64,000 nucleotides of DNA from an uncultured Armatimonadia bacterium (GTDB taxonomy: Bacteria > Armatimonadota > Zipacnadia > CAVVLO01), in contig CAVVLO010000001.1 in NCBI GenBank assembly GCA_963749155.1, forward strand, positions 918,452 through 982,451, in the 5' to 3' direction. Within the stretch, counting starts at the first letter, position 1, and each line of letters opens with the position of its first letter. This document shows, one piece after another, positions 38,282 through 60,768 of the stretch. The notes under the pieces are model-generated. The model was not told the origin of the DNA. It ran no database searches and worked only from the letters and a program-made list of their open reading frames with translations. Position numbers and translations under genes: made by a program.

Positions 38282-38393
38282 CGACCTTTGCACGAGTTCG
38301 AGTAGTCGACTCACGCCTGCCGCTCCCTTCTCCTCGCACTCACATCTAATACTTCCAGGATCTGCCATCGCCAGGCTAGTGGTACAACCGGGG

Positions 38394-38421
38394 TTGACAC
38401 CTCAGCGGACCGGTCTATAAT
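38394..38421 (+). promoter_or_regulatory. Consensus sigma-70 promoter of RHS operon copy 1
   Basis: TTGACA-16bp-TATAAT (17 bp in copy 2). Confidence 0.8.
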
Positions 38422-38524
38422 CGAAGGTAGTAACCTGTTGGTTTCCAGCACACACTTTGAATTACGTTGTAAAGACGCTGTTTGTAAAAGTAGGTGTTTC
38501 GTCCCAACCAAGGAGGAAGCCCCG

Positions 38525-39263
38525 ATGTCAGGCTCGAGACGCTGGGCAGCGTTTGCCCTGGTCACAGTGCTCCTTACGGTGGTCACGCTCCTCGTTCTGT
38601 GGTACCCGGTCCTCGCCGACGGGCTGAAGGACGCCCAGCAGGCCTCCTGCATCGCCAACCTCAAGAAGATCATCCTCGCAACCAGAATGTACTGCAGCGA
38701 CTGGGACGGCGCTTACCCCAACTCCGCCCTTACCGGCGCAAGCTACTCCGAGGCCTATGGCGGCGAGTTGCCGAAGAACATGCAGTTCGAGCGCCAGCGG
38801 AAGGGCTGGCCCGTGGCGCTGGCGCCTTACCTGGCCGACTCGCAGGTGCTGTGGTGTCCTGCTGACGGCGACCTCGCTGAGCACTGCCCCAGATGCCGAG
38901 GTGTCCTACTGGTTTCGCCACGCCCTGGACATCGGCCCTCTCTACCACTGGGGTCGGCCGCTCTCGGTGTCCGACATGGCCTTCGCCGATAGGCAGTTCC
39001 TCTTCTACGAGCATAGCGACTGGCACGGCGCGGGCGTTGGCCTTGGTACTGGCATCGCCGGTGCCGGCGGCCACGGGCCCGACCTCGACGGCATCACCTC
39101 GGTGACGATCAACTGCGCCTTCGCGGACGGCCACGCGGCCGCGCTCGAGCTTGGGCCCGGCCTCTCTTCCGCAGGCAAGACCATCGATGCCAACTGGTTC
39201 ACCTCGACCACTGACCCCTCCGACCCAACGGCCCTGTGGAACCCGAAGATCAGCCTCGACTAG
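38525..39263 (+). CDS. DUF1559 / H-X9-DG-type prepilin-like protein, copy 1 (frameshift near 38870)
   Basis: TM + AQQASCIANLKKIILATRMYCSDWD, LWCPAD, NCAFADGH. Confidence 0.8.
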
Positions 39264-39314
39264 CGGGCGTTGGTAGACGCATCGAGGAAGGCGCGAATAG
39301 CCGTGCGGGGGTGG

Positions 39315-40768
39315 ATGGCAATGAGGAAGACAGCAGTTGGCCTGCTGGCACTGAGTCTGACTATGATGCTGGTTGCCGGGATGAGCGCCGTTGCTGGCGC
39401 GGCACCCGAGGGGCTCCAGGAGGCCATCGCCTTGCTGGGGCAGGGGCGGTACCAAGAGGCCCAGGCGGCTTGCGAGGGGCAGTTCTTGCAAGGGCCGGCC
39501 GGGGAAGCGGCTGCCCGGCTCGTGCTTGCGGAGATCTGGGCCGCCCAGGGCCAGTTCGACAGCGCGGTAGAGCAGGCCTCGAAGGCACACGACCTCGCAA
39601 GCGGTCTGCAGCCGGCAGACGCGGCGCTTACCGCCCAGGCCGAAGCCGCGATGGCGCGGCATAGCGGCGATGCAGCAGACCTTCGACGACCGGGTCGCCA
39701 AGCTTCAGGCGGATGTGGCCGCAGGGGCTGGCACGCCCAAGGGCTGGCAGGCCCAGCTTGCGCTGGGTGACACCTTCACGCTCAACGGACACTTCGATGA
39801 CGCCCTCGAACAGTATGGAACTCTCTCTCAGGCAACGCCAATCAGCATTTGGGCTGAGCGAGCCGCTGCCAGGATGGGGCTGGTCTACGACGCCACCGGC
39901 AAGCCTGACGAGGCGCGCCAGGCCTACCTGCTGTGCGGACTCGCTGGGCGGGCAGTTGCGCTACGAGGCAGTGGGCAAGGCCCAGGTTGCCCAGTATCAG
40001 GCGACCCTCGCCGCGAGCCCGGGCGACGACGAGGCGGCCGAGGTACGCTACAAGATTGCCTGCATATACGCCCAGTACCTGATGTACGATCAGGCTATCG
40101 CGGAGCTGGTCGGCCTCATCGACACGTACCCCACCAGCAAGCCGGCCGCCAAGGGCCTGTCCCTGCTCACCACGCTCTTCATCCAGTCAGAGCGCCCCGA
40201 CGAGGCGGTCGAGGTGCTGGTGCCACTGGTCGATGACCACTACGCGGACGACTCAGCCGTGCTCGTGGGGTTGTGCGGGGTATACCGGCGCGCCGGTGGC
40301 ACCACCGATGCGGAAAGCACAGCCAAGGGCGTGCTGAGAGACTACCCCGACAGCGAGCAGGTCGCTGGGGCTGTCACCGAGTTGAAGGCGACCTACGAGG
40401 CCGCTGGGAACACCCCAGAGGCAACAGCAGGCAAGCTCAGAGCCTTACCGAGTGCCTACCCAGGCCCCGAGGTCGGCCCTGCAGTGGACGAGGGGATCGA
40501 GCAGCTCGCCTCAGCCTACTACTACCAGGGCACGGGCCTGGCCGCCGAGGACAAGTACGCCGAGGCCTTGGCTCTATTCGACAAGGCCCTCGCCCTGAGG
40601 CCGCCGGCCGACACTGGCCCCAAGGCGGCCTATCAGAAGGCCATCTGCTACCACGCCCTGGGTGACGACCCCCAGGCCATCGCGGCCTTCAAGGCAGTGA
40701 TCCAGGAGTACCCGGATGCTTATCTGGCCATCAGGGCTGCGAACTGGATCGCGCGGCTCGGGGGCTAG
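39315..40768 (+). CDS. Exported TPR protein, copy 1 (two frameshifts)
   Basis: Signal peptide plus TPR/YbgF-like repeats (AAYQKAICY...AFKAVIQEYPD); intact in copy 2. Confidence 0.85.
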
Positions 40769-40783
40769 TGAGGCAGGAGCAAT

Positions 40784-41715
40784 ATGGAGCGGTCTACTCC
40801 TCCAGTCTGGATGGTTGCAGCAGTTGTGGTCGGCGTGCTGGTCGGCGCGGCGGCGCTCTGGCATCTGCTCGCAGGTCCGAGTGCGGGCGGGAGCCATTCC
40901 GCTGCATCGCTCTCTGATTCCACCGAGTCCGCCCCCTCTCCCGTGGCCCGGGGCCTGTACGACGAGGCCTATGCGGCAGCCGGGAAGGGGGATATACGAG
41001 GGCTGCGGAGCGCTTCTCGCAGCTGCTGGCGAAGTGTCCCAATGACCCGCTGGCCGATGATGCCCAGTACCAGCGCGGCATCTGCTTCTTCGCCCAGAGG
41101 GACTACGCCGATGCCGAGCGCGAGTTCCGGGAGCTGCAGCAGCGCTTCCCCGACAGCTACCTCAGCGAGAAGGCTGAGGACTGGATCGCCAAGGCCCGGG
41201 TCAAGCAGGGCGGCGGGACCACGAAGGTAACAGACGCTCCGGGTTCCGCTACGAGGCCTGTCGAAGAGGCCATCAGCGACGTCACGGGGGCAGGCGAGCG
41301 CAAGCTGGAGCCGCTCATCTACGAGGAGACGCGACCTGCGCCGCGGGTGGGGATGTGTGGGCCGGACGCACTGGCGATCATCTGCAAACAACTTGGAGAG
41401 GCAACTACGCCCGAAGAACTAGCCCGCCTCGCCAGCACCGACCGCACAGGCACCTCGCTGGCGGGTCTTGCGAAAGCGGCCAAGGCCAAGGGACTGGCGG
41501 CCGAGGGGCTCCAGGTGAACTACGAGTACCTGCGCAAGATGCCAAAGCCCGTGCTTGCCTGGGTGGGCGGCAATCACTACGTAGTGGTGACGGCGGCGAG
41601 CAGGGATGCGGTTGAGTTGAACGATCCCGCAAAGGGACGCTACGCACTTGCAGTTGGCCCGTTTGAGCGGATATGGGACGGCTACGTGCTGGCCGTCAGC
41701 CTCAGAGAACAGTAG
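40784..41715 (+). CDS. Membrane-anchored TPR + C39 cysteine peptidase, copy 1 (frameshift near 41030)
   Basis: N-terminal TM, TPR, then CGPDAL, GTSLAGL, NHYVVV, NDPAKG, FERIWDGYVL. Confidence 0.85.
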
Positions 41716-41738
41716 CGCAGGACGCAGGGAGGCAGCAG

Positions 41739-44700
41739 ATGAGCAGGCTGGCGGGCAGCAGGTTAGGGCAGATAGCGAGCTATGTGGCGGCGTTCTGTTG
41801 CGCATGGCTGATCTGCCTGGGCGACTGGGCACAGTTGGCGGGAGCCCAGGCGGCCAGTCGGCCTGGCGCTGCCCCGGCGGTTGCCAGTATGCGCGTGCTC
41901 GCGCCCGGCGAGCTAACGAGCATCAGCGGGCAGACTACCAACTCGTGCTTGGTGCAGGGGGTGCCTGACCCCTGCGTCGTCGCGATGAGGAACGCGTCCG
42001 AAATTATGTCGGGCTCCTGCCGGCCTGGTGTTAGCTGCGATCGACTGGCCCGGGTGGTGTGTGCTGCCTCGCCGGGAGGCCAGGCCAGCGCCTCTCAGTT
42101 GGTTGGCAAGAGCAGCAACAGCCTGGGTCCGCACGTGGACCTGGAGCTGTATCACAGCAGCCGCAACATCGGCTCGACGGGCTTCTTCGGGCGGGTGTGG
42201 GCCTCGACCTGGGACCAGCACGTCTCGGAGGCGCCAGGCGGCAACGTGACGGTCTTCCGCAAGGACCACACGCTCGATGAGTTCACCAGGAACGTGGACG
42301 GCTCCTACACCGCCCCTCCCGGCGTGCACGATGTGCTGGTGAAGCACACCGCTACCGATGGCAGCTTCACGCTGACGCTGGTGGACGGCACCGAGCAGCA
42401 CTTCTACCCCCTTGGGGGCACAACCTCCGGTCGGCTGGACACCGTGACGGACCGCAACGGCAACACCGTGACCTGCGGCTACGAGGGCACCGGGAAGGTC
42501 ACGACAGTCACCGACGCGGCCGGGCGCATCACCACCTTCGCCTACGATGGCTCCGGGCGCGTCGAGAGCGCAACCAACCCGGCCCTGGAGATAACCACTT
42601 TCACTTACGATGCAAATAGCGACCTGCAGACGGTGACGTTGCCCACCGGGGCAATAACGACCTATACCTACGATGCCAACCACCGCATCAGCCAGCTCAC
42701 CGACCCCAACGGCCGAGTGACCACCTTCAGCTACGACGGGGATGGACGCACGACGGGGGTGACCGATCCCCTTGGCTACCGCAGCACCGTTACCTATAAC
42801 GGCATCTACTGCAGCTGGACGGATCCGCTCGGGCAGCTCACGACCTACACCTACGACGGGACGGACCAGTTCGCCAAGCTCATCGCCTCCGAGGACCCGA
42901 CTGGCCGGACCGTGAGCTACACCTACAACAGCGACCGGGCGCGGACGGAGGTCACCGACCCGCTGGGCAACATCACGACCTTCACCTACGACTCGGATGG
43001 CAATCGCACCAGCTCAACCAACCCGCTGGGCAAGACCACTTATTACACCTGGGACTCGGACCACCACCTCACCACCGTGACCGATCCGCTGGGCAACACC
43101 ACCACCTACACCTACGAGGGGAGCGGCAACCTGGAGACGGTCACCGATCCCCTCGCTAGCGAAACAGGCTTCACCTACACGGCCGAGGGGCTACCGGAGA
43201 CGGTTACCGACCCGCTGGCTGGCGTCACGACCTTCACCTATGACGCTGACGGGAACCTGGCGACGGTGAGGGACGCGCTCGGCAACCTCACCACTCATAC
43301 CTATGATGCGATTGGGAACAGGCTGACGACAACCGATGCCCTGAACCATACGACCACCTTCACCTACGATGCCATCGACAGGCTCATCCAGACGACCTTC
43401 CCCGATGGCAACAGCCGCACGGTCACTTACCAGGGGAGCCTTCAGATCCAAAGCACCGATGAAGAGGGCCGCATCACCACCAACACCTTCGACACGGGCG
43501 GCCGGCTGATCGGGGTAACGCTTGCGACCGGGGCGATGACGACTTACGTCTACGACGCCCTGAACCGGCTCGCTAGCGGTGACCGATGCCGAGGGCGTTG
43601 CGCCTGCGGCTGACTACAGCGTGGCCGGCGCCGGCACCAGCGCCTTCAACGGGGACTATTCCGAGGACGGCACTTACAACGGCAAGCCGGCCTACAAGCT
43701 GGACAACAGCCATTACCTCATCTGGCAGACCCGGGCGTTGCCGCCGGCCTCGGAGCGCTGGGAGCTGCAGACCCAGAAGGGCGGGGGCACCTGCTACTAT
43801 TATGGGACAGGCCCCGATCTTCCAGCCGGCGCCTGGACGGCCTCCAGCGGCACGCCGCCAGCGCCTACGGTGAGCGCGGCTCTACCCAACCCACACCACC
43901 ACCTACACCTACGATGCGGCCGGGCGCCAGCTGACGGCCACCGACCCCTGGGCAACACCACGACCAACTCCTACGATGACGCGGGCCGGCTGCTGACCCG
44001 GACCGACCCGCGGGGGAACCTGGTCACCTACAGCTACGATGATACGAGTCAGCTTACGGGGTGGACTACCCGACGGGCACCGACCTGGCTTTCACCTACG
44101 ATGATGCAGGGCGGCGAATCGACGTCCACGACGCCTCAGGCTACACGACCTATACTTACGATGCCCTCGGCCGGACGACCGTCGTCACCACGCCTGGGCC
44201 AGAGCGGGCCACCTATGCCTACGATACCCTCGGCAACCGCACCGAGTTCACTGACCAGGACGGGGGCCTCACCACTTACTCCTACGATGCCCTGGGGCGG
44301 CTCGAGGCGCTCACCAACCCCAGCAGCGAGGAGACGAGCTTCGAGTACGATGATATCGGCAACAGGACTCGCCTGACTCACGCTAGCGGCGCCTATACGA
44401 CCTACACCTACACCTCGCGCAACTGGCTGGAGGAGCTCTCGAACCGCAAGTCGGATGAGACGGTGCTCTCCAGCTTCGCCTATGACCACGACGACTGCGG
44501 CAACCGGACCGAGATGACCGAGGCCACGGGCGACGTCACCACCTATGCTTACGACTGCCCTCTACGAGCTGACCGGGCAGACCAAGCGCAACTCGGGGGA
44601 TGTAGTACAATATAGTTATAGCTACACTTATGACGACATCGGCAACAGGCTGACTCTTACCGACCAGGGGAGCGCGGTGACGACCTCCACTTACAACGCG

Positions 44701-45816
44701 GGCGGGCAGTTGATCGGGACGGACGCCTCTGGGACGCTGACGACCTACACCTACGATGCCTCGGGCAATCTCGCCGCCGAGGTCACGAGCGCCGGGACGC
44801 GCTCCTACACCTGGGACTACGACGACCGGCTGACCGACATCGAGTACCCGGACTCCTCCGAGACCAACTACACCTACAACTCCGCCGGGCAGCGGCTGAC
44901 GAGGGTGGAGGGCGGGACAACGACCAAGTTCGTCTACGATGGGGCGAAGGTAGTGCTCGAGCGCGACGGCGACGACGAGACCGAGGTGCGCTACACCCAC
45001 GAGGGCGGCTCGCTCTACAGCGACCTCCTCAGCCAGCGGCGCGATGGGGCAAGCTACGACTACCTGCTCGACGGGCTGGCGAGCGTGAAGCAGATGGTAG
45101 ACAGCTCCGAGGCCGTCGAGAACAGCTACAGCTACGAGGCCTTCGGGCAGGCGACGGTCGGCCAGAGCGACGTCGCCAACCCTTACCTCTTCGTTGGCGG
45201 CTACGGCGTCCAGTGGGAGAGCACCCCGAGCCTCTACTTTATGCAGGCCAGATACTACGGCCCGAGCGTCGGCCGCTTCATCTCGGAGGACCCCTACGGC
45301 GGCTCGCCGCAGGACCCGATGAGCCTGCACAGGTACCTGTACTGCGCCAATGGGCCGGTGAGCAGGACTGATGTAGCAGGAGCTGACGGCTGGCGCTTCT
45401 GGACCTACGCGGCCGGAGCACCGCTGGTACTGGTCATCAGGCTCAGGGCGCATGGGATCGCGGATACTGGCGCGCACAGTTCGACGTACTGGGCCGAGAT
45501 CTCGCGACTGGACTTGGACCATCCGGATGCACGTGCGATCCGAAGCTGCTCATGCGTGCAGGTGCTGGTTAGCCTGACGTCTCCGTGACTGACGGCCGCG
45601 TGCCGGGTGTGGTGGAACGTCGTGATCGAACTCCACAGCATCCGGTCTCGGGAGCGTAACCTGCAGCTCCAGGTGCTCCTGCCGTGGGCACTGCCGAGGC
45701 TGGCAGCGTCGCGGACGGCAGAGGTGCGTCGACATCTGAGCCGCGCCGGTGACGCTGCTGATAGCGGTCTTTGTCATCCGGGCTGCGATGACGACGTGCA
45801 GGGACTGGCGGACTGA
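41739..45816 (+). CDS. RHS/YD-repeat polymorphic toxin, copy 1, carrying tip B (several frameshifts; tip region corrupted)
   Basis: Signal peptide, DUF6531-like segment, YD repeats, core ARYYGPSVGRFISEDP...NGPVSRTDVAG; tip aligns with 49728-50150. Confidence 0.85.
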
Positions 45817-46908
45817 TGGCCGTAGCAGTAGACGATGGTGGGTGGAGACGCTGCGGTGTGGCAAGCGTAGCTCGGACGCGACAGGTGGCCAACCGCAGTC
45901 GCGCTCACGGCCTGGCGTTCGCGCGTGTCCTCGGCTCGATGGCACGGCAGGAGCAGTCGTTCTACTGGAATCGCGGCCCTGGGCTTGGGGAACGCCGAAC
46001 GGGAGGGCTCTCGCTCTGCGTCTGGGCTTGCTCGCTGACGGCGGCCGTTCCGCTCTCGACGGGCGATCCCGGCTGAAGCCGCGGGTATTGTCTCGGACGC
46101 CTACTCGCCGGCGTTGCTCTGCTACGGTCGGTGCTGATGGCGCTGGGCCTGTCCGACGCATGGTACCAGGCGTGATGGCGCTCTTCCCGTTCCGACCGAC
46201 TGGAACGCCAGCGCCTGAACCTGTCTACGCTGGTGGCACGGCGGGTGCTAGTGGTTGCGGTTTTGCTCATCGCAGCATCGCCCGGCCGATCCGCTCGGTA
46301 CGGCTTGGACAGTGGCTTCGCGAGCAGCGCTGGTGACATGCGGCGTGTTTCTCATCCGTTTCTGGGTCTGGGGCGAACCGGAGTGACACTGCGTCACGCT
46401 ACACCGAGACCTACACCTACACCTCGCGCAACTGGCTGGAGGAGCTCTCGAACCGCAAGTCGGATGAGACGGTGCTCTCCAGCTTCGCCTACGACCACGA
46501 CGACTGCGGCAACCGGACTCAAATGACCGAGGCCACCGGCGACGTCACCACCTACGCCTACGATGCCCTCTACGAGCTGACCGGCCAGACGAAGCGCAAC
46601 TCGGGGGATGTAGTACAATACAGTTATAGCTACACTTACGATGACATCGGCAATCGGCTGACTCTTACCGACCAGGGGAGCGCGGTGACGACCTCCACTT
46701 ACAACGCCGGCGGGCAGTTGACCGGGACGGATGCCTCCGGGACGCTGACCACCTACACCTACGATGCCTCGGGCAATCTCCAGGCCGAGGTCACGAGCGC
46801 CGGGACGCGCTCCTACACCTGGGACTACGACGACCGGCTGACCGACATCGAGTACCCGGACTCTTCCGAGACCAACTACACCTACAACTCCGCCGGGCAG
46901 CGGCTGAC
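45079..46908 (+). repeat. Inverted repeat of 48627-50450 (core + tip B + immunity B + orphan RHS fragment)
   Basis: Manual alignment; indel-rich between about 45390 and 46320. Confidence 0.85.
45816..46386 (+). pseudogene. Indel-ridden copy of immunity gene B (decay or sequencing error)
   Basis: Aligns to the reverse complement of 49150-49728 with many indels. Confidence 0.65.
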
Positions 46909-47762
46909 GAGGGTGGAGGGCGGGACGACGACCAGGTTCGTCTACGATGGGGCGAAGGTCGTGCTGGAACGCGACGGCGACGACGAGACCGAGGTGCGCT
47001 ACACCCACGAGGGCGGCTCGCTCTACGACGACCTCCTGAGCCAGCGACGCGATGGGGCCAGCTACGACTACCTGCTCGATGGGCTGGCGAGCGTGAAGCA
47101 GGTGGTGGACAGCTCCCAGGACGTCGAGAACAGCTACAGCTACGAGGCCTTCGGGCAGCCGACGGTCGGCCAGAGCGACGTCGCCAACCCGTACCTCTAT
47201 CTTGGGGGGCAAGGGGCGCGCTGGGAAGGCACGCCGGGCTTGTACTTTGATGCAGGACAGATACTACGACCCCTCATTCAGCATTGACTTGGGTAGGTAC
47301 CGTCGGGCGTGGCTCCACTTCTGCGACCCGGTCCCGTGGCGGCCCTTGCAGTACCTCATCTGCATGCAGGAGGCACTTTCCGCTCGTGATCGTGCCAACA
47401 AGGCTCACGGCAGCAAGGAACACCGCGCCTGCTGGGCACTTAAGCCAATTAGGCAGGAGAGAGCAGCCTATGAGAATGCCTATCGCCATTGTCTTTGGAT
47501 GTGCGAACTGTCACGTGCCCAGGGCGAGTCCTGTGCATTGATGGCCGAGATGCTGCACGAGGGATCCAACTACGTCGAAGCTCTTCTCTTGTGCGGACTC
47601 AATATCTCTTGCTGGAAGAATTACGCGTATGACACACTGCACGATCTGCATAACAACCTCGTAGGGGTGGACTGCAGAAACCAGGGCGGCACTTGCTGGG
47701 ATTGCTGCAACACAGCTTATTATGAACAGAGACTTCTTCCCGACAAGCCCTTCTGGTCATAG
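46410..47762 (+). CDS. Orphan RHS core fragment + tip D1 (DUF6973-like; frameshift near 47248)
   Basis: RHS homology starts mid-gene; tip has NAYRHCLWMC...LHE...DTLHDLHNNLVG. Confidence 0.8.
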
Positions 47763-47851
47763 CCGGACAGGCCTGCCAGAACGTAGCCTGCGGTGAGATG
47801 TGTCACCTAGCGCATCGCCGGGCTGTAGCCTGTCTACAGGGGTGAACAGGC

Positions 47852-48328: not shown

Positions 48329-48364
48329 AACGCGAGTTGATCGACGGGACAGACTTAGCTTTCT

Positions 48365-48497
48365 CTCTACGAGCTGACCGGGCAGACGAAGCGTAACTCG
48401 GGGGATGTAGTACAATACAGTTATAGCTACACTTACGATGACATCGGCAACAGGCTGACTCTTACCGACCAGGGGAGCGCGGTGACGACCTCCACTT
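48365..48497 (+). pseudogene. Short RHS repeat fragment
   Basis: LYELTGQTKRNSGDVVQYSYSY...SAVTTST, matching the RHS copies. Confidence 0.8.
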
Positions 48498-48630
48498 CCG
48501 CCTGGCGTAGCTTGTTGATGATCTGCTCTGGCGTGTGCTTCACGTTCCCCATTCCCATCGCCCCTTTTCTCGGTCCAAATCCATGCCAATTATGACATTA
48601 CACCTGGACTCGTTTTGGGGGGCAAGGTCA
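48490..48630 (-). mobile_element. Left-end remnant of an IS3-family (IS407-group-like) element
   Basis: Begins TGACCTTGCCCCCC; encodes MGNVKHTPEQIINKLRQAEVE, typical of an IS3 OrfA N-terminus; then truncated. Confidence 0.8.
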
Positions 48631-49125
48631 GCCGCTGCCCGGCGGAGTTGTAGGTGTAGTTGATCTCGGAGGAGTCCGGGTACTCGATGTCGGTCAGGCG
48701 GTCGTCGTAGTCCCAGGCGTAAGAGCGCGTGCCTGCGCTGGTGACCTCGGCCTGGAGATTGCCCGAGGCATCGTAGGTATAGGTGGTCAGCGTCCCGGAG
48801 GCGTCCGTCCCGGTCAGCTCTCCGCCGGCGTTGTAAGTGGAGGTCGTCACCGCGCTCCCCTGGTCGGTAAGAGTCAGCCGATTGCCGATATCATCGTAAG
48901 TGTAGCTATAACTATATTGTACTACATCCCCCGAGTTGCGCTTCGTCTGGCCGGTCAGCTCGTAGAGGGCATCGTAGGCGTAGGTGGTGACGTCGCCGGT
49001 GGCCTCGGTCATTTGAGTCCGGTTGCCGCAGTCGTCGTGGTCGTAGGCGAAGCTGGAGAGCACCGTCTCATCCGACTTGCGGTTCGAGAGCTCCTCCAGC
49101 CAGTTGCGCGAGGTGTAGGTGTAGG
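48627..49125 (-). pseudogene. Orphan RHS fragment truncated at the IS remnant
   Basis: YTYTSRNWLEELSNRK...SAGQRLT followed by IS sequence. Confidence 0.8.
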
Positions 49126-49149
49126 CTCTCGGTGTAGCGTGACGCAGTG

Positions 49150-50530: not shown

Positions 50531-50540
50531 CCAGCCGCTG

Positions 50541-51416: not shown

Positions 51417-51461
51417 TCGGTCTCAGCCCAACCCATTCGCGACGTCAGACGATCCCAAGGA

Positions 51462-52418: not shown

Positions 52419-52459
52419 GTTCTTGTGCTCCTCGATGCACGTACGAGGCGGTCCTTAAG

Positions 52460-52942
52460 CTAGTCAATCGCAAAGCTGCTGTCGACATCCGCGCGGATCA
52501 TCCGCCCTCTTGAGTCGAAGTCAACGTAAAAGTCCCACATATCGCCATACTTGAAGGGATAGCCCAGCTTGTAGGTCCACGATTCCACGTTGGTCTGAGG
52601 GTTCTCACTCGTCCCCAGCTCCGGCTCGCCCAGCAGCTCCAGCACCTGGGCCTCGGACATCCCGGGGCGCAGGTAGCTGTCCAGCAGTGACCTGGCCATC
52701 TGGTACCTTAGCGATGGCGGATGTCCGCTGTCGTACCCGGTTGGAGAGTTGCCCTTCCAGACCTGACTGTCGAAGGGAGCCTTGCTGAGCGCCAGGTCGC
52801 CTCCGAGTATGCAGGGGATCCCGTACGGCGACAAGTAGAGGACGAGACTATCAGCAAGCAGCCCAAGGTACACGAACACGGCGCCAACCGTGATCGCTAG
52901 GGCCAAGATAACGCCGCGACGCCAGCGTCCCGCACGCAACAT
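52460..52942 (-). CDS. Putative immunity protein D2 (TM anchor + SmpA/BamE-like domain)
   Basis: AGGAGG RBS before ATG 52942; FDSQVW, RYQMARSL, GMSEAQVLELLGEPE, VDFDSRGR; paralogue of D1. Confidence 0.75.
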   Translation of the reverse strand: MLRAGRWRRGVILALAITVGAVFVYLGLLADSLVLYLSPYGIPCILGGDLALSKAPFDSQVWKGNSPTGYDSGHPPSLRYQMARSLLDSYLRPGMSEAQVLELLGEPELGTSENPQTNVESWTYKLGYPFKYGDMWDFYVDFDSRGRMIRADVDSSFAID

Positions 52943-53023
52943 AGCTCTCCTCCTAAGCACTGCAGCGGTCAGCACTCTCCGAGCGCCGCACGCACAGCCG
53001 GCGCTCGAGGGCATCCAGGGGAT

Positions 53024-56000
53024 TTATTGCGCCACCTTAGGATCTCTGACCAACCGACCAGACTTGGCGGCCGCAATGCAGCCATCCATGCACTGCCGAT
53101 CCCAGTTGCTGCCCAGCTCACGACCCAGGGATATCCCCACCAGGTTGTTGTCAAGATCGTGCAAGGTGTCGTCCCACCAACCCTCTACCCAAGGCCCAAC
53201 ATGTAGCTGCGGCCGGTCCTCTCCCTCTCTGTGCCTCCTATGGAGCCAGTCGTCGAGGTCGGTCCATACGGCCTGGGGCTCGTGCAGAGCGCCCACCCAG
53301 AGCGCACAGTCAGCGCTCACCAAACGAGTCAGCTTACACATCCAGAGGCAGTGAGTCACGGCGTTGCCGTAGCCCTCGGGCACACGACAGGGATCCTTTG
53401 CGTTTTCCTTGTTCATGGCCGTGATAGTGTAACGACTATTCTCACGCCCCATTAGTATGCAGCGCACCACATTATACGCCATCAGTAATGGTGGCGAAGC
53501 CGACATCCGCACATAGTAGTGAATGACATTCGCTGCCCTGCTCTGGCAGATCCCGCGCCCCAGGCTTGGGCTGAAGAACCCAGCCTCAGCGTAGTAAAGT
53601 CCTGCAGAACTCTCCCAGCGCGCCCCTTGCCCCCCAAGATAGAGGTACGGGTTGGCCACGTCGCTCTGGCCGACCGTCGCTTGCCCGAAGGCCTCGTAGC
53701 TGTAGCTGTTCTCGACGGCCTGGGAGCTGTCCACCACCTGCTTCACGCTCGCGAGCCCGTCGAGCAGGTAGTCGTAGCTGGCCCCATCGCGTCGCTGGCT
53801 CAGGAGGTCGCTGTAGAGCGAGCCCCCCTCGTGGGTGTAGCGCGCCTCGGTCTCGTCGTCGCCGTCGCGCTCCAGCACGACCTTCGCCCCATCGTAGACG
53901 AACTTGGTCGTTGCCCCGCCTTCCACCTTCGTCAGCCGCTGCCCGGCGGAGTTGTAGGTGTAGTTGGTCTCGGAAGAGTCTGGGTACTCGATGTCGGTCA
54001 GCCTGTCGTCGTAGTCCCAGGTGTAGGAGCGCGTCCCGGCGCTCGTGACCTCGGCGGCGAGATTGCCCGAGGCGTCGTAGGTGTAGGTCGTCAGCGTCCC
54101 GGAGGCGTCCGTCCCGGTCAACTGCCCGCCTGCGTTGTAAGTGGAGGTCGTCACCGCGCTCCCCTGGTCGGTAAGAGTCAGCCTGTTGCCGATGTCGTCA
54201 TAAGTGTAGCTATAACTATATTGTACTACATCCCCCGAGTTGCGCTTGGTCTGCCCGGTCAGCTCGTAGATCGAGTCGTAAGCATAGGTGGTGACGTCGC
54301 CGGTGGCCTCGGTCATTTGAGTCCGGTTGCCGCAGTCGTCGTGGTCATAGGCGAAGCTGGAGAGCACCGTCTCATCCGACTTGCGGTTCGAGAGCTCCTC
54401 CAGCCAGTTGCGCGAGGTGTAGGTGTAGGTCGTATAGGCGCCGCTAGCGTGAGTCAGGCGAGTCCTGTTGCCGATATCATCGTACTCGAAGCTCGTCTCC
54501 TCGCTGCTGGGGTTGGTGAGCGCCTCGAGCCGCCCCAGGGCATCGTAGGAGTAAGTGGTGAGGCCCCCGTCCTGGTCGGTGAACTCGGTGCGGTTGCCGA
54601 GGGCATCGTAGGCATAGGTGGCCCGCTCTGGCCCAGGCGTGGTGACGACGGTCGTCCGGCTGAGGGCATCGTAAGTGTAGGTCGTGTAGCCTGAGGCGTC
54701 GTGGAAGTCGATTCGCCGCCCTGCATCATCATAGGTGAAGGCCAGGTCGGTGCCCGTCGGGTAGTCCACCCCAATAAGCTGACTCGTGTCATCGTAGCTG
54801 TAGGTGACCAGGTTCCCCCGCGGGTCGGTCCGGGTCTGCAGCCGGCCCGCATCGTCGTAAGTGTTCGTCGTGGTGTTGCCGAGGGGATCAGTGGCCGTCA
54901 GCTGCCGCCCGGCCGCATCGTAGGTGTAGGTGGTGGTGTGGGTTGGGTAGAGGCGCGTCACCGTGGGGGCTGGCGGCGTGCCGCTGGAGGCCGTCCAGGC
55001 GCCGGCTGGAAGATCGGGGCCTGTCCCATAATAGTAGCAGGCGCCCCCGCCCTTCTGCGTCTGCAGCTCCCAGCGCTCAGAGGCCGGCGGGAGCAGCCGG
55101 GTCTGCCAGATGAGGTAATGGCTGTTGTCCAGCTTGTAGGCCGGCTTGCCGTTGTAAGTGCCGTCCTCGGAATAGTCCCCGTTGAAGGCGCTGGTGCCGG
55201 CGCCGGCCACGCTGTAGTCAGCCGCAGGCGCAACGCCCTCGGCATCGGTCACCGCTAGCAGCCGGTTCAGGGCGTCGTAGACGTAAGTCGTCATCGCCCC
55301 GGTCGCAAGCGTTACCCCGATCAGCCGGCCGCCCGTGTCGAAGGTGTTGGTGGTGATGCGGCCCTCTTCATCGGTGCTTTGGATCTGAAGGCTCCCCTGG
55401 TAAGTGACCGTGCGGCTGTTGCCATCGGGGAAGGTCGTCTGGATGAGCCTGTCGATGGCATCGTAGGTGAAGGTGGTCGTATGGTTCAGGGCATCGGTTG
55501 TCGTCAGCCTGTTCCCAATCGCATCATAGGTATGAGTGGTGAGGTTGCCGAGCGCGTCCCTCACCGTCGCCAGGTTCCCGTCAGCGTCATAGGTGAAGGT
55601 CGTGACGCCAGCCAGCGGGTCGGTAACCGTCTCCGGTAGCCCCTCGGCCGTGTAGGTGAAGCCTGTTTCGCTAGCGAGGGGATCGGTGACCGTCTCCAGG
55701 TTGCCGCTCCCCTCGTAGGTGTAGGTGGTGGTGTTGCCCAGCGGATCGGTCACGGTGGTGAGGTGGTGGTCCGAGTCCCAGGTGTAATAAGTGGTCTTGC
55801 CCAGCGGGTTGGTTGAGCTGGTGCGGTTCCCATCCGAGTCGTAGGTGAAGGTGGTGATGTTGCCCAGCGGGTCGGTGACCTCCGTCCGCGCCCGGTCGCT
55901 GTTGTAGGTGTAGCTCACGGTCCGGCCAGTCGGGTCCTCGGAGGCGATGAGCTTGGCGAACTGGTCCGTCCCGTCGTAGGTGTAGGTCGTGAGCTGCCCG

Positions 56001-57091
56001 AGCGGATCCGTCCAGCTGCAGTAGATGCCGTTATAGGTAACGGTGCTGCGGTAGCCAAGGGGATCGGTGACCCCCCTCGTGCGTCCATCCCCGTCGTAGC
56101 TGAAGGTGGTCACTCGGCCGTTGGGGTCGGTGAGCTGGCTGATGCGGTGGTTGGCATCGTAGGTATAGGTCGTTATTGCCCCGGTGGGCAACGTCACCGT
56201 CTGCAGGTCGCTATTTGCATCGTAAGTGAAAGTGGTTATCTCCAGGGCCGGGTTGGTTGCGCTCTCGACGCGCCCGGAGCCATCGTAGGCGAAGGTGGTG
56301 ATGCGCCCGGCCGCGTCGGTGACTGTCGTGACCTTCCCGGTGCCCTCGTAGCCGCAGGTCACGGTGTTGCCGTTGCGGTCCGTCACGGTGTCCAGCCGAC
56401 CGGAGGTTGTGCCCCCAAGGGGGTAGAAGTGCTGCTCGGTGCCGTCCACCAGCGTCAGCGTGAAGCTGCCATCGGTAGCGGTGTGCTTCACCAGCACATC
56501 GTGCACGCCGGGAGGGGCGGTGTAGGAGCCGTCCACGTTCCTGGTGAACTCATCGAGCGTGTGGTCCTTGCGGAAGACCGTCACGTTGCCGCCTGGCGCC
56601 TCCGAGACGTGCTGGTCCCAGGTCGAGGCCCACACCCGCCCGAAGAAGCCCGTCGAGCCGATGTTGCGGCTGCTGTGATACAGCTCCAGGTCCACGTGCG
56701 GACCCAGGCTGTTGCTGCTCTTGCCAACCAACTGAGAGGCGCTGGCCTGGCCTCCCGGCGAGGCAGCACACACCACCCGGGCCAGTCGATCGCAGCTAAC
56801 ACCAGGCCGGCAGGAGCCCGACATAATTTCGGACGCGTTCCTCATCGCGACGACGCAGGGGTCAGGCACCCCCTGCACCAAGCACGAGTTGGTAGTCTGC
56901 CCGCTGATGCTCGTTAGCTCGCCAGGCGCGAGCACGCGCATACTGGCAACCGCCGGGGCAGCGCCAGGCCGACTGGCCGCCTGGGCTCCCGCCAACTGTG
57001 CCCAGTCGCCCAGGCAGATCAGCCATGCGCAACAGAAAGCCGCCACATAGCTCGCTACCTGCCCTAACCTGCTGCCCGCCAGCCTGCTCAT
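53024..57091 (-). CDS. RHS/YD-repeat polymorphic toxin, copy 2 (intact), tip D2 (DUF6973-like)
   Basis: Uninterrupted ORF; GGGAGG RBS before ATG 57091; tip NAVTHCLWMC...LHE...DTLHDLDNNLVG. Confidence 0.92.
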   Translation of the reverse strand: MSRLAGSRLGQVASYVAAFCCAWLICLGDWAQLAGAQAASRPGAAPAVASMRVLAPGELTSISGQTTNSCLVQGVPDPCVVAMRNASEIMSGSCRPGVSCDRLARVVCAASPGGQASASQLVGKSSNSLGPHVDLELYHSSRNIGSTGFFGRVWASTWDQHVSEAPGGNVTVFRKDHTLDEFTRNVDGSYTAPPGVHDVLVKHTATDGSFTLTLVDGTEQHFYPLGGTTSGRLDTVTDRNGNTVTCGYEGTGKVTTVTDAAGRITTFAYDGSGRVESATNPALEITTFTYDANSDLQTVTLPTGAITTYTYDANHRISQLTDPNGRVTTFSYDGDGRTRGVTDPLGYRSTVTYNGIYCSWTDPLGQLTTYTYDGTDQFAKLIASEDPTGRTVSYTYNSDRARTEVTDPLGNITTFTYDSDGNRTSSTNPLGKTTYYTWDSDHHLTTVTDPLGNTTTYTYEGSGNLETVTDPLASETGFTYTAEGLPETVTDPLAGVTTFTYDADGNLATVRDALGNLTTHTYDAIGNRLTTTDALNHTTTFTYDAIDRLIQTTFPDGNSRTVTYQGSLQIQSTDEEGRITTNTFDTGGRLIGVTLATGAMTTYVYDALNRLLAVTDAEGVAPAADYSVAGAGTSAFNGDYSEDGTYNGKPAYKLDNSHYLIWQTRLLPPASERWELQTQKGGGACYYYGTGPDLPAGAWTASSGTPPAPTVTRLYPTHTTTYTYDAAGRQLTATDPLGNTTTNTYDDAGRLQTRTDPRGNLVTYSYDDTSQLIGVDYPTGTDLAFTYDDAGRRIDFHDASGYTTYTYDALSRTTVVTTPGPERATYAYDALGNRTEFTDQDGGLTTYSYDALGRLEALTNPSSEETSFEYDDIGNRTRLTHASGAYTTYTYTSRNWLEELSNRKSDETVLSSFAYDHDDCGNRTQMTEATGDVTTYAYDSIYELTGQTKRNSGDVVQYSYSYTYDDIGNRLTLTDQGSAVTTSTYNAGGQLTGTDASGTLTTYTYDASGNLAAEVTSAGTRSYTWDYDDRLTDIEYPDSSETNYTYNSAGQRLTKVEGGATTKFVYDGAKVVLERDGDDETEARYTHEGGSLYSDLLSQRRDGASYDYLLDGLASVKQVVDSSQAVENSYSYEAFGQATVGQSDVANPYLYLGGQGARWESSAGLYYAEAGFFSPSLGRGICQSRAANVIHYYVRMSASPPLLMAYNVVRCILMGRENSRYTITAMNKENAKDPCRVPEGYGNAVTHCLWMCKLTRLVSADCALWVGALHEPQAVWTDLDDWLHRRHREGEDRPQLHVGPWVEGWWDDTLHDLDNNLVGISLGRELGSNWDRQCMDGCIAAAKSGRLVRDPKVAQ

Positions 57092-57114
57092 CTGCTGCCT
57101 CCCTGCGTCCTGCG

Positions 57115-58047
57115 CTACTGTTCTCTGAGGCTGACGGCCAGCACGTAGCCGTCCCATATCCGCTCAAACGGGCCAACTGCAAGTGCGTAGCGTCCCTTTG
57201 CGGGATCGTTCAACTCAACCGCATCCCTGCTCGCCGCCGTCACCACTACGTAGTGATTGCCGCCCACCCAGGCAAGCACGGGCTTTGGCATCTTGCGCAG
57301 GTACTCGTAGTTCACCTGGAGCCCCTCGGCCGCCAGTCCCTTGGCCTTGGCCGCTTTCGCAAGACCCGCCAGCGAGGTGCCTGTGCGGTCGGTGCTGGCG
57401 AGGCGGGCTAGTTCTTCGGGCGTAGTTGCCTCTCCAAGTTGTTTGCAGATGATCGCCAGTGCGTCCGGCCCACACATCCCCACCCGCGGCGCCGGTCGAG
57501 TCTCCTCGTAGATGAGCGGCTCCAGCTTGCGCTCGCCTGCCCCCGTGACGTCGCTGATGGCCTCTTCGACAGGCCTCGTAGCGGAACCCGGAGCGTCTGT
57601 TACCTTCGCGGTCCCGCCGCCCTGCTTGACCCGGGCCTTGGCGATCCAGTCCTCAGCCTTCTCGCTGAGGTAGCTGTCGGGGAAGCGCTGCTGCAGCTCC
57701 CGGAACTCGCGCTCGGCGCCGGCATAGTCGCCCTGGGCGAAGAAGCAGATGCCACGCTGGTACTGCGCATCGTCGGCCAGGGGGTCGTTGGGGTACTTGG
57801 CGCAGCAGGCGCGCGAAGTTATCCGCGTCCTTGCCGTAATCCCCCTCCCCGCAGCCGCGTAGGCGTCGCAGTAAAGGCCCTGGGCCAGGAGAGAGGGGGC
57901 GGACTCGGTGGAATCAGAGAGCGATGCAGCGGAATGGCTCCCGCCCGCACTCGGACCTGCGAGCAGATGCCAGAGCGCCGCCGCGCCGACCAGCACGCCG
58001 ACCACAACTGCTGCAACCATCCAGACTGGAGGAGTAGACCGCTCCAT
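57115..58047 (-). CDS. Membrane-anchored TPR + C39 cysteine peptidase, copy 2 (single ORF)
   Basis: 310 aa; C/H/D triad motifs CGPDAL, NHYVVV, NDP; no ABC transporter domain. Confidence 0.9.
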   Translation of the reverse strand: MERSTPPVWMVAAVVVGVLVGAAALWHLLAGPSAGGSHSAASLSDSTESAPSLLAQGLYCDAYAAAGRGITARTRITSRACCAKYPNDPLADDAQYQRGICFFAQGDYAGAEREFRELQQRFPDSYLSEKAEDWIAKARVKQGGGTAKVTDAPGSATRPVEEAISDVTGAGERKLEPLIYEETRPAPRVGMCGPDALAIICKQLGEATTPEELARLASTDRTGTSLAGLAKAAKAKGLAAEGLQVNYEYLRKMPKPVLAWVGGNHYVVVTAASRDAVELNDPAKGRYALAVGPFERIWDGYVLAVSLREQ

Positions 58048-58062
58048 ATTGCTCCTGCCTCA

Positions 58063-59526
58063 CTAGCCCCCGAGCCGCTGGATCCAGTTCGCAGCCCTGA
58101 TGGCCAGATAAGCATCCGGGTACTCCTGGATCACTGCCTTGAAGGCCGCGATGGCCTGGGGGTCGTCACCCAGGGCGTGGTAGCAGATGGCCTTCTGATA
58201 GGCTGCCTTGGGGCCAGTGTCGGCCGGCGGCCTCAGGGCGAGGGCCTTGTCGAATAGAGCCAAGGCCTCGGCGTACTTGTCCTCGGCGGCCAGGCCCGTG
58301 CCCTGGTAGTAGTAGGCTGAGGCGAGCTGCTCGATCCCCTCGTCCACGGCAGGGCCGACCTCGGGGCCTGGGTAGGCACTCGGTAAGGCTCTGAGCTTGC
58401 CTGCTGTTGCCTCTGGGGTGTTCCCAGCGGCCTCGTAGGTCGCCTTCAACTCGGTGACAGCCCCAGCGACCTGCTCGCTGTCGGGGTAGTCTCTCAGCAC
58501 GCCCTTGGCTGTGCTTTCCGCATCGGTGGTGCCACCGGCGCGCCGGTATACCCCGCACAACCCCACGAGCACGGCTGAGTCGCCCGCGTAGTGGTCATCG
58601 ACCAGTGGCACCAGCACCGCCACGGCCTCGTCGGGGCGCTCTGACTGGATGAAGAGCGTGGTGAGCAGGGACAGGCCCTTGGCGGCCGGCTTGCTGGTGG
58701 GGTACGTGTCGATGAGGCCGACCAGCTCCGCGATAGCCTGATCGTACATCAGGTACTGGGCGTATATGCAGGCAATCTTGTAGCGTACCTCGGCCGCCTC
58801 GTCGTCGCCCGGGCTCGCGGCGAGGGTCGCCTGATACTGGGCAACCTGGACCTTGCCCACTGCCTCGTAGCGCAACTGCCCGCCCAGCGAGTCCGCAAGC
58901 AGGTAGGCCTGGCGCGCCTCGTCAGGCTTGCCGGTGGCGTCGTAGATCAGCCCCATCCTGGCAGCGGCTCGCTCAGCCCAAATGCTGATTGGCGTTGCCT
59001 GAGAGAGAGTTCCATACTGTTCGAGGGCGTCATCGAAGTGTCCGTTGAGCGTGAAGGTGTCACCCAGCGCAAGCAGGGCCTGCCAGCCCTTGGGCGTGCC
59101 AGCCCCTGCGGCCACATCCGCCTGAAGCTTGGCGACCCGGTCGTCGAAGGTCTGCTGCATCGCCGCTATCCGCGCCATCGCGGCTTCGGCCTGGGCGGTA
59201 AGCGCCGCGTCTGCCGGCTGCAGACCGCTTGCGAGGTCGTGTGCCTTCGAGGCCTGCTCTACCGCGCTGTCGAACTGGCCCTGGGCGGCCCAGATCTCCG
59301 CAAGCACGAGCCGGGCAGCCGCTTCCCCGGCCGGCCCTTGCAAGAATTGCCCCTCGCAAGCCGCCTGGGCCTCTTGGTACCGCCCCTGCCCCAGCAAGGC
59401 GATGGCCTCCTGGAGCCCCTCGGGTGCCGCGCCAGCAACGGCGCTCATCCCGGCAACCAGCATCATAGTCAGACTCAGTGCCAGCAGGCCAACTGCTGTC
59501 TTCCTCATTGCCATCCACCCCCGCAC
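58063..59526 (-). CDS. Exported TPR protein, copy 2 (intact)
   Basis: 487-aa ORF with signal peptide and TPR repeats. Confidence 0.88.
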   Translation of the reverse strand: MRGWMAMRKTAVGLLALSLTMMLVAGMSAVAGAAPEGLQEAIALLGQGRYQEAQAACEGQFLQGPAGEAAARLVLAEIWAAQGQFDSAVEQASKAHDLASGLQPADAALTAQAEAAMARIAAMQQTFDDRVAKLQADVAAGAGTPKGWQALLALGDTFTLNGHFDDALEQYGTLSQATPISIWAERAAARMGLIYDATGKPDEARQAYLLADSLGGQLRYEAVGKVQVAQYQATLAASPGDDEAAEVRYKIACIYAQYLMYDQAIAELVGLIDTYPTSKPAAKGLSLLTTLFIQSERPDEAVAVLVPLVDDHYAGDSAVLVGLCGVYRRAGGTTDAESTAKGVLRDYPDSEQVAGAVTELKATYEAAGNTPEATAGKLRALPSAYPGPEVGPAVDEGIEQLASAYYYQGTGLAAEDKYAEALALFDKALALRPPADTGPKAAYQKAICYHALGDDPQAIAAFKAVIQEYPDAYLAIRAANWIQRLGG

Positions 59527-59565
59527 GGCTATTCACGCCTTCCTCGATGCGTCTACCAACGCCCG

Positions 59566-60303
59566 CTAGTCGAGGCTGATCTTCGGGTTCCACAGGGCCG
59601 TTGGGTCGGAGGGGTCAGTGGTCGAGGTGAACCAGTTGGCATCGATGGTCTTGCCTGCGGAAGAGAGGCCGGGCCCAAGCTCGAGCGCGGCCGCGTGGCC
59701 ATCGGCGAAGGCGCAGTTGATTGTCACCGAGGTGATGCCGTCCTCATCTGGACCGTGGCCGCCGGCGCCGGCGATGCCAGTACCAAGGCCAACGCCCGCG
59801 CCGTGCCAGTCGCTATGCTCGTAGAAGAGGAATTGCTTGTCGGCAAAGACCATGTCGGAGACTGAGAGCGGCCGACCCCAGTGGTAGAGAGGGCCGATGT
59901 CCAGGGCATGTCTGAACCAGTAAGAGACTTCAGCGTCCGGTGACGGGCTTATCGAGTTCCCATCAGCTGGACACCACAGCACCTGCGAGTCGGCCAGGTA
60001 AGGCGCCAGCGCCACGGGCCAGCCCTTCCGCTGGCGCTCGAACTGCATGTTCTTCGGCAACTCGCCGCCATAGGCCTCGGAGTAGCTTGCGCCGGTAAGG
60101 GCGGAGTTGGGGTAAGCGCCGTCCCAGTCGCTGCAGTACATTCTGGTTGCGAGGATGATCTTCTTGAGGTTGGCGATGCAGGAGGCCTGCTGGGCGTCCT
60201 TCAGCCCGTCGGCGAGGACCGGGTACCACAGAACGAGGAGCGTGACCACCGTAAGGAGCACTGTGACCAGGGCAAACGCTGCCCAGCGTCTCGAGCCTGA
60301 CAT
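59566..60303 (-). CDS. DUF1559 / H-X9-DG-type prepilin-like protein, copy 2 (intact)
   Basis: AAGGAGG RBS before ATG 60303; SCIANLKKI...MY.SDWD; NCAFADGH. Confidence 0.85.
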   Translation of the reverse strand: MSGSRRWAAFALVTVLLTVVTLLVLWYPVLADGLKDAQQASCIANLKKIILATRMYCSDWDGAYPNSALTGASYSEAYGGELPKNMQFERQRKGWPVALAPYLADSQVLWCPADGNSISPSPDAEVSYWFRHALDIGPLYHWGRPLSVSDMVFADKQFLFYEHSDWHGAGVGLGTGIAGAGGHGPDEDGITSVTINCAFADGHAAALELGPGLSSAGKTIDANWFTSTTDPSDPTALWNPKISLD

Positions 60304-60407
60304 CGGGGCTTCCTCCTTGGTTGGGACGAAACACCTACTTTTACAAACAGCGTCTTTACAACGTAATTCAAAGCGCGTGCTGGAAACCAACACGGTTACT
60401 ATCTTCG

Positions 60408-60436
60408 ATTATACGACCGGTCCGCTGAGGTGTCAA
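60408..60436 (-). promoter_or_regulatory. Perfect consensus sigma-70 promoter of RHS operon copy 2
   Basis: TTGACA-17bp-TATAAT on the minus strand. Confidence 0.85.
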
Positions 60437-60768
60437 CCCCGGTTGTACCACTAGCCTGGCGACGGCAGATCCTGGAAGTATTAGATGTAAGTGCGGACGA
60501 GTCTACTGGACAAAAGGGGCTGTAGTGAGGCTTGTGAGAGCCTCTGTGTGGCGTTAAACGCGAACCTGTGAGCGCCGTAAGCCGTAAGCTCACCTGGGTC
60601 ACTGCCTGGATGCAGAGAGGAGCTCTGGGCGCTGTTTACAGGCGCTAGCATGCAACCTGGCCCTACCAGGCTGCTGCAATCATTATGAGCAACGCTGATG
60701 TTTATGGCTGGAAGACACACAGATCCAGGCTCTCGTCATGTTTGGCCATCCTTGTACTGGCGCTGACA

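Follow-up and report, generated by a model that had tools for sequence, protein, structure and literature searches.

We analysed a 64,000-nt stretch of DNA (here called the window) from an uncultured Armatimonadia bacterium (GenBank assembly GCA_963749155.1, contig CAVVLO010000001.1, positions 918,452 to 982,451 of the forward strand), in which a Rhs (YD-repeat) polymorphic-toxin region appears to sit on an island that starts at a tRNA-Gln gene. With moderate confidence, we read this region as one working Rhs locus accompanied by decaying inverted and direct paralogues that are homogenised by gene conversion, a decaying inverted duplication being more likely than a working switch. Here, the right-hand operon (DUF1559-like, TPR, TPR+C39 peptidase, and Rhs with the tip D2; this arm and its Rhs copy are called R) would be the single working expression locus, and it would be followed by its own immunity gene and by two intact co-directional orphan pairs, C and B'. 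The left arm (L) with its tip B, along with a third Rhs copy (T), would be paralogous copies from an inverted or segmental duplication, in which a rearrangement associated with an insertion sequence (IS) was probably involved, the two cassette arrays having been joined at an IS3-like scar. Both L and T would now be decaying, and the unshared tip B on L would have drifted neutrally, while the cores and upstream genes would remain 97-99% alike because gene conversion keeps trading patches among them, inverted pairs included. RecA-type crossovers between inverted tracts may flip the interior now and then, as a by-product of the repeats and not as a dedicated switch. Both the duplication history and the choice of the expressed locus are what we infer from the present arrangement.

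Inverted arms and three cores of alternating orientation

Comparison of the window with itself by blastn revealed, foremost, a pair of arms on opposite strands (38335-45200 and 60495-53631) with 97.48% identity over 6874 aligned columns, and this bears out the inverted arms of about 6.9 kb that were claimed in the preliminary description. Repeats of such extent and identity are far beyond chance. The arms were then compared by global alignment (6866 nt for L and 6865 nt for R), which gave 166 substitutions and 11 single-base indel columns, the differences being very patchy along the arms (from 1 to 42 per 500-nt bin). Each arm is a transcription unit, in which a promoter is followed by genes for a DUF1559-like protein, a TPR protein, a TPR+C39 peptidase, and Rhs (Table 1). 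On the outer side, the arm homology begins some 100 nt ahead of the promoter, and the flanks of the two arms are unrelated, while on the inner side the main cores diverge at 45200 (plus) and 53631 (minus). Moreover, the Rhs core occurs a third time as T (60907-64000), which extends past the window end and shares 97.26% identity with 41725-44820 in direct orientation and 97.35% identity with 57105-54011 in inverted orientation; a spacer of 411 nt lies upstream of it. The core copies alternate in orientation, with L forward, R reverse, and T forward, and promoter-like sites are separate for R (12/12), T (10/12), and L.

Nested between the arms is an inner inverted repeat (45079-46908 versus 50450-48627; 90.6% over 1868 columns by blastn), which is older than the arm repeat. 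In addition, an inverted pair of 499 nt with 97% identity (46410-46908 and 48627-49125) is set 1718 nt apart with the D1 cassette between the two copies, and further inverted homology tracts measure 819 nt (95.2%), 472 nt (92.4%), and 500 nt (93.4%). Every inverted repeat of at least 100 nt is core, arm, or cassette homology.

On the plus strand, the order is main core, B (from 45200), a core fragment (46408-47272), D1, an immunity candidate, and a 133-nt core piece (48365-48497), the last of which was a feature absent from the preliminary description. On the minus strand, the main core is followed by D2 (from 53631), a fragment (52418-51947), C, a second fragment (50450-50165), B', and a third fragment (49125-48627). 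Cassettes do stand on both strands (B and D1 on plus; D2, C, and B on minus), each behind Rhs core homology, just as had been described before. The layout is that of a Rhs polymorphic toxin, with a YD/RHS repeat array, variable tips with open reading frames (ORFs) downstream of them, and orphans behind core homology.

One intact Rhs copy and the probable decay of the others

Only R provides an uninterrupted Rhs copy. Its open frame runs for 1377 residues from 57157, with a ribosome-binding site and ATG at 57091 and a stop at 53024, and the protein contains 17 Pfam RHS_repeat stretches (7e-107; TIGR01643 at 4e-83) behind a signal-peptide-like N-terminus. Relative to this arm, all four genes of L are frame-broken. 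Nine of the 11 arm indels are coding, and all nine leave L out of R's open frame (single-base indels in L at 38869, 39660, 39933, 41028, 43571, 43874, 43944, 44056, and 44557); where T serves as a third copy, the indels are L-specific in five cases out of five. T itself has a 2-nt insertion in a CG repeat (61529-61530) that ends the frame at 61556, as well as a 3-nt deletion at 61053.

More conspicuously, 163 substitutions along with 31 indel events set the left-hand tip B and its immunity gene apart from the intact B' over 1.83 kb. As these substitutions are spread evenly over the codon positions (29:25:25 in the tip and 15:21:10 in the immunity gene) and come with 60 indel columns (27 and 33), B and its immunity gene have decayed neutrally, and this divergence lies far above any assembly error rate. 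In the core parts that flank B, the codon-position counts are 4:2:18 and 3:1:11, with no indel. Those pieces of the L tip that are homologous to B' sit in different frames, and an in-frame stop is present as well.

There are also finer signs of how the copies have fared. In the D1 orphan, the core/tip junction contains a single additional base, and the homologue P0039 reads in frame across the same junction. As to the C39 genes, a comparison with an 89% identical homologue revealed a 17-codon out-of-frame patch in the R copy (57800-57870), which is enclosed by two compensating indels about 50 nt apart, and the L copy has a single uncompensated break nearby (40990-41030). This frame-restoring pair in R, along with the uncompensated break in L, fits selection on R only.

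Frame breaks are, however, also found in indispensable genes. Thus, valyl-tRNA synthetase is broken into three parts whose profile coordinates are contiguous, Mfd is broken into two, and methionyl-tRNA synthetase is probably in two and is separated from its own tRNA-binding domain, with these housekeeping breaks all falling within 1232-12011. Likewise, one of the serine recombinase genes is split (31273-33469), and a Wzy_C-TPR gene (35894-38281) is probably broken too. Since essential genes are affected, some of the single-base breaks in L, T, and D1 may be errors. The break density is roughly one per 5-8 kb elsewhere, as against nine in the 6.9-kb left arm, and the compensated C39 indels in R together with the dinucleotide-repeat insertion in T suggest that at least part of the breaks are real.

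Gene conversion among the cores

Over the 3.1 kb that L, R, and T have in common, 110 informative events form a mosaic in which each pair of copies is the closest in turn, block by block. These events fall into 40 runs versus 67.5 +/- 4.6 runs in shuffles, and none of 10,000 shuffles reached 40. Such block-wise mosaicism means that the cores have exchanged conversion tracts, and this in turn makes RecA-type inversions plausible. Judged from the aligned copies, gene conversion has demonstrably operated among them, inverted pairs included. Substitutions between L and R are mostly synonymous (49 synonymous versus 21 non-synonymous in Rhs, and 26 versus 12 in the DUF1559-like gene), and the divergent patches are clustered and consist mostly of third-codon-position changes. 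In two of these patches (38860-38920 and 40940-41060), almost every third base is different between the arms, and these patches look like conversion tracts from a more divergent functional copy outside the window. We also considered whether a diversity-generating retroelement had produced the divergent patches and rejected this, as the changes are distributed over all base pairs and mostly lie at third codon positions.

A segment of about 90 residues without YD repeats is also found within the Rhs shell (about 54880-55140 in R and 43690-44250 in L). It coincides with the most divergent block among L, R, and T, in which four of the five L-specific indels of the Rhs core are located.

Two arrays abutting at an IS-like scar

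In the centre of the region, we noticed that three parts lie side by side, these being the terminal minus fragment, which is cut off at the core sequence '...CAGCGGC', an element of about 95 nt (J') with the start of an ORF, and the plus-oriented core piece. The ORF begins with MGMGNVKHTPEQIINKLRQAE... and reads from 48558 downwards, with the remnant directly abutting the plus core piece. A second copy of this element (J) is located before B' (50535-50440), where it supplies the B' ATG and about 95 nt upstream, and the 32-nt core of the element has two occurrences with none expected. At B', the joint of the IS-like element to the core is at a short shared motif. A tblastn search of plasmids with the 23-residue OrfA-like start gave weak matches (best E 0.3), although among the matches listed 10 of 25 coincide with genes annotated as IS3-family or transposase and none with a gene of another annotation. 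The scar peptide has no match in Pfam or NCBIfam, and neither a DDE domain nor a right end is present at the scar. Putting these together, the scar can be read as the trace of an IS-associated rearrangement, with an apparently IS3-like remnant.

The preliminary description had pictured two expression loci around one shared bank of tips and immunity genes. While its geometry holds, L as sequenced does not credibly qualify as a second locus, its four genes being broken and B decayed, and the supposed bank is in fact two arrays that abut at the scar.

Tips, orphans, and immunity candidates

The small ORFs downstream of the tips are presumably immunity genes. Tip D1 belongs to Pfam DUF6973 (3.9e-7; 30.1 bits versus a cut-off of 27), and the core fragment of its orphan is 95.2% identical to the 3' end of the right core over 819 nt (blastn). 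Tip D2 matches DUF6973 weakly (1.2e-4), has 20 of its 30 Atlas matches in the DUF6973 set, and groups with DUF6973 clusters of unknown function. The D1 and D2 immunity candidates share 35% identity (54/154, E 2e-19), as likewise do the two tips, so that tips and downstream ORFs have diverged in step, and because this identity is so low on both counts, D1 and D2 would seem to be related cassettes with probably distinct specificities. For D1, a sequence search found no solved structural relative (best E 0.5), and the C tip has no family in Pfam or NCBIfam, with only sub-threshold leads in the Atlas (0.84).

Both of the orphans C and B' carry the full-length Rhs-associated core domain (TIGR03696), and so does the broken L copy (1.7e-14, positions 1-75 of 76). 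In R at the D2 junction, on the other hand, only positions 1-44 of 76 are matched, at an E of 0.014 and below the cut-off. The Rhs-associated core ends in a DPxGL-type cleavage motif just before the variable tip. Here, we observed that the D-type tips (DUF6973) begin mid-way in this domain (53613-53700 and 47226-47300), and that the relative P0039 has the same junction. Since D-type tips replace the second half of the core, R, as the only intact main Rhs, is without the second half of TIGR03696, which we take to be where the canonical cleavage motif lies.

In a protein search with C, all matches except its own protein and P0019 (51% identity at 70% query cover, from a 609,042-nt contig) span 63% of the query or less, and for the closest ones this falls to 50% or less, which corresponds to the core part. 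Relatives do exist, in that orphans with core parts 86-93% identical are found on contigs of 12,944, 60,546, and 679,772 nt. The orphans of the relatives P0018, P0021, and P0023 all start at the B' core position, and this shared start hints at either a recurrent breakpoint or the independent translation of orphans.

Working locus or toxin switch

Chief among the alternatives, though in our view unlikely, is that RecA-dependent crossovers reversibly invert segments of the region, such that the intact core would gain tips from the other strand with all immunity genes kept. Its logic, which the preliminary description had put forward, is upheld by the confirmed geometry, as a crossover between opposed cores inverts the DNA and does not delete it, and so no immunity gene is lost. 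Usable inverted tracts are certainly present, from 6.87 kb at 97.5% identity down to 472 nt at 92.4%, and in Salmonella a 522-nt tract with 95% identity is enough for recombination between main and orphan copies (Koskiniemi 2014, PMC3967940). Gene conversion between inverted copies is evident too, the D1 and D2 tips and immunities would offer specificities distinct enough (at 35% identity) to be worth switching, and if the single-base breaks were assembly errors, L, T, and D1 could all function. Yet the decay of B and its immunity gene on L exceeds any such error rate and has a neutral pattern, and the arrays are joined at what looks to be an accidental IS scar. Moreover, crossovers in the long arms would merely exchange arrays between two equivalent loci, and therefore no new toxin would be expressed.

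The products of these crossovers can be predicted from the coordinates. Within the long arms, a crossover would flip 45.2-53.6 kb. Between R and the plus fragment (819 nt, 95.2%), it would hand R the D1 tip, and between L and the minus fragments (472-500 nt, 92-93%), it would hand L the C or B' tip. Alternatively, a crossover within the 499-nt 97% pair would turn the D1 cassette round and place it in the minus array. In the present sequence, a broken partner would be found in every one of these inversion products, and inversions would give no new intact toxin on an intact core, save for the transfer of arrays between equivalent arms.

Several points nonetheless speak against one working locus with decaying paralogues. 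The D1 tip and immunity ORFs, which are on the supposedly dead side, are intact save for one junction indel, and the D1 cassette lies between its 499-nt 97% inverted repeats in the geometry of an invertible segment. The synonymous excess between L and R is not expected of a long neutral decay of the arm, unless conversion overwrites it, and part of the breaks in L and T may be assembly errors. In a fuller version of the switch, the alternating L/R/T layout would itself be a toxin switch driven by homologous recombination, with D1 flipping, R gaining tips, and the breaks being partly assembly errors, but we hold this to be quite improbable. Were a switch true, it would be an orientation-based and non-destructive alternative to the duplication-then-deletion route of Salmonella, and if inversions were frequent and productive, toxin arsenals could be rearranged without paying the price of a lost immunity gene, which constrains co-directional orphan arrays (PMC3967940). 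On present evidence, one working locus with decaying paralogues would mean that Rhs paralogues of either orientation are kept alike by conversion while unshared tips decay, and that an IS scar can mark the joining point of two arrays.

There is very little likelihood that the converging layout is an assembly artefact that exists on no single molecule, be it the product of a fold-back read, a chimeric read, or a misjoin across the repeated core. Admittedly, residual indel errors are present in the sequence, three repeats of 3-7 kb at about 97% identity are hard to assemble, and many more indels occur in one arm than in the other. Still, a simple fold-back was rejected because the interior between the arms is non-palindromic, with the C, D2, and D1 cassettes being unique. 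The inner repeat, too, is only about 90% identical and shows divergence of a neutral type, the arms differ by patches of third-position changes, and the contig under which the window proteins are listed is 982,451 nt long, a length that implies repeat-spanning long reads.

Least credible, and largely refuted, is that the nearby serine recombinases invert the cassettes at short sites, as in Gin/Hin/Min systems or the R64 shufflon, for although two such genes lie 5-8 kb from the left arm and their catalytic domains weakly match the Mpi invertase model (3e-6 and 2e-5), both enzymes are large, with Recombinase and zinc-ribbon domains and best NCBIfam matches to the excision/integration enzymes XisF (6e-36) and CcrB/CcrC/CcrA, both abut the tRNA-Gln gene, one is split into two frames, and the cassettes are without recurrent short flanking inverted sites, the long repeats all being core, arm, or cassette homology. 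Across 44-55 kb, only five of 164 maximal exact inverted matches of at least 12 nt have an arm outside the homology blocks, and these five are 12-13 nt each with no recurring motif. Nor is there an invertase-type enzyme, the only recombinases in the window being the large XisF/Ccr-like ones. Consequently, neither a role for these recombinases nor the likeness to a shufflon, both of which had been raised earlier, found support here, as a dedicated invertase is missing from the window, recurrent short sites are missing from 44-55 kb, and not all 3' ends are intact. Most simply, the two serine recombinases are island integrases.

Comparison with known systems

The locus belongs to the known main-plus-orphan class of Rhs loci, and its unusual point is the three cores of alternating orientation. 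As in the rhs-main/rhs-CT-orphan region of Salmonella Typhimurium LT2, a full-length Rhs and an immunity gene are followed by orphan modules, and homologous recombination is common to both as the route of an orphan to the main core, with the orphan core homology being 522 nt at 95% in LT2 versus 285-865 nt at 88-95% here (PMC3967940). In Salmonella, recombination between main and orphan deletes rhsI-main and so needs a prior duplication; the contrast drawn in the preliminary description, namely that displacement by co-directional orphans deletes the intervening DNA, is already in print (Koskiniemi 2014, PMC3967940). Unlike the co-directional LT2 orphan, the cassettes in our region are found in both orientations, placed between three cores that themselves alternate in direction. 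A further difference from LT2 is that the window has no type VI secretion system genes, and its Rhs has a signal-peptide-like N-terminus and is placed behind DUF1559/TPR/C39 genes.

The G segment of phage Mu (Gin), Min of p15B, and the R64 shufflon (Rci) each rely on a site-specific recombinase acting at short sites, and all their alternative ends are intact. In common with these systems, our region has a constant 5' part with alternative 3' ends in opposite orientations, which an inversion would swap without the loss of DNA. In contrast, it has no crossover site and no invertase-type enzyme, and several of its ends are broken, these being B on the left (a pseudogene), D1 (a frame break at the junction), and the last minus fragment (lacking a tip).

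In the sap S-layer locus of Campylobacter fetus, RecA-dependent inversion takes place between opposed homologues with a conserved 5' region, one promoter serves them all, and variants have been observed. Similarly, R and T form a 3.1-kb inverted pair with 97.35% identity that flanks a promoter-bearing segment, and L and R share 6.87 kb. A crossover between the R and T cores would, as in sap, redirect expression to another array. Unlike sap, however, where one promoter is used for all homologues, R and T have their own promoter-like sites, and T is frame-broken.

Three copies of which the middle one is inverted are reportedly the hallmark of tandem inversion duplication in work from the Roth laboratory, and the L, R, and T copies are indeed direct, inverted, and direct. 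We considered this as the origin of the layout and rejected it, as the junctions do not fit; the arms end some 100 nt ahead of the promoter, next to flanks that are unrelated, and the 411-nt spacer ahead of T has no counterpart elsewhere in the window. Judged by the titles of the matches listed, a literature search yielded no account of polymorphic toxin loci that exchange tips by inversion, and PMC7430833 mentions rhs as a repeat class only.

Table 1. Coordinates of the features in the 64,000-nt window
Feature	Position	Strand	Remarks
tRNA-Gln(ttg), likely left island boundary	29489-29563	+	ARAGORN; Rfam tRNA, 66.5 bits
Two large serine recombinase genes	30017-31132; 31273-33469 (latter in two frames)	-	Pfam Resolvase, Recombinase, and Zn_ribbon_recom
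Left arm L, promoter TTGACA-16-TATAAT near 38390-38420	38335-45200	+	97.5% identical to R arm
L gene copies, DUF1559-like and TPR	38438-39263; about 39304-40768	+	frame-broken
L gene copies, TPR+C39 and Rhs	40784-41715; Rhs ATG about 41739	+	frame-broken
Tip B and putative B immunity gene behind left core	45200-46336	+	pseudogenised
Plus orphan, core fragment (46408-47272) and D1 tip	46408-47762	+	1-nt frame break at about 47253
D1 immunity candidate, 158 aa, N-terminal membrane helix	47852-48328	+	35% identical to D2 candidate
Rhs core piece, 133 nt	48365-48497	+	96-97% to 44560-44692 and 46568-46700
Junction scar, element J' (about 95 nt) and first ~20 codons of putative IS3-like OrfA	48498-48627	-	aligns with 50535-50440
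Terminal core fragment, no tip behind it	48627-49125	-	cut off by element J'
B' immunity candidate, 199 aa, multi-pass membrane protein	49749-49150	-	open frame
Orphan B', 243 aa, intact	50459-49728	-	TIGR03696 Rhs_assc_core, 4.8e-15
C immunity candidate, 291-aa membrane protein	51416-50541	-	open frame
Orphan C, 298 aa, intact; core homology 52418-51947	52358-51462	-	TIGR03696, 3.8e-15
D2 immunity candidate, 184 aa, membrane helix and weak BamE-like domain	52460-53014	-	Pfam BamE 3e-4, below cut-off
Right Rhs gene R, tip D2 from ~53631	53024-57091	-	sole uninterrupted full-length copy
TPR+C39 peptidase gene, R arm, 310 aa, membrane anchor	58047-57115	-	Pfam, 2.9e-26
TPR protein gene, R arm, 487 aa	59526-58063	-	Pfam, NCBIfam
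DUF1559-like membrane-anchored protein gene, R arm	60393-59566	-	Pfam, NCBIfam
R arm promoter, TTGACA-17-TATAAT	60436-60408	-	scores 12/12
Unique spacer before T	60496-60920	+	matches nothing else in the window (blastn)
T promoter-like site, TTGACG-16-TATAGT with TG	60769-60796	+	10/12
Third Rhs copy T, lacking an upstream operon	60921-64000	+	L/R homology starts 14 nt before ATG

Probable island setting and the genes ahead of Rhs

No repeat of the tRNA-Gln 3' end (att) was found in the window, and the right end of the island lies beyond it. The G+C content is 0.52-0.55 at 33-35 kb and 0.64-0.68 in the arms. In this lowest-G+C part, three ORFs of 94, 405, and 88 residues (33678-35952) match no Pfam or NCBIfam family.

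We also noticed that the set of genes ahead of Rhs (57115-60393, and 38438-41715 in L) is an unusual one, with its DUF1559-like protein, TPR protein, and free-standing TPR+C39 protein. For the latter, a search of 5.8 billion proteins gave only five homologues at E <= 1e-3, and a profile scan of genome contigs with the TPR+C39 family gave 64 loci, all of which match residues 10-178 (generic TPR) and none the C39 domain. Likewise, a literature search linking Rhs or YD repeats with a C39 peptidase and TPR returned nothing relevant. C39 domains in the PDB match the R arm protein at 8.6e-7, and its weaker NCBIfam matches are the periplasmic C39 peptidases FapD and FilB. The Cys, His, and Asp columns, presumably the catalytic residues of the C39 domain, are invariant among six homologues. 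Possibly, the upstream genes of the arms serve specifically to process or export a Sec-type Rhs, and so rare a gene set in this position may merit study on its own.

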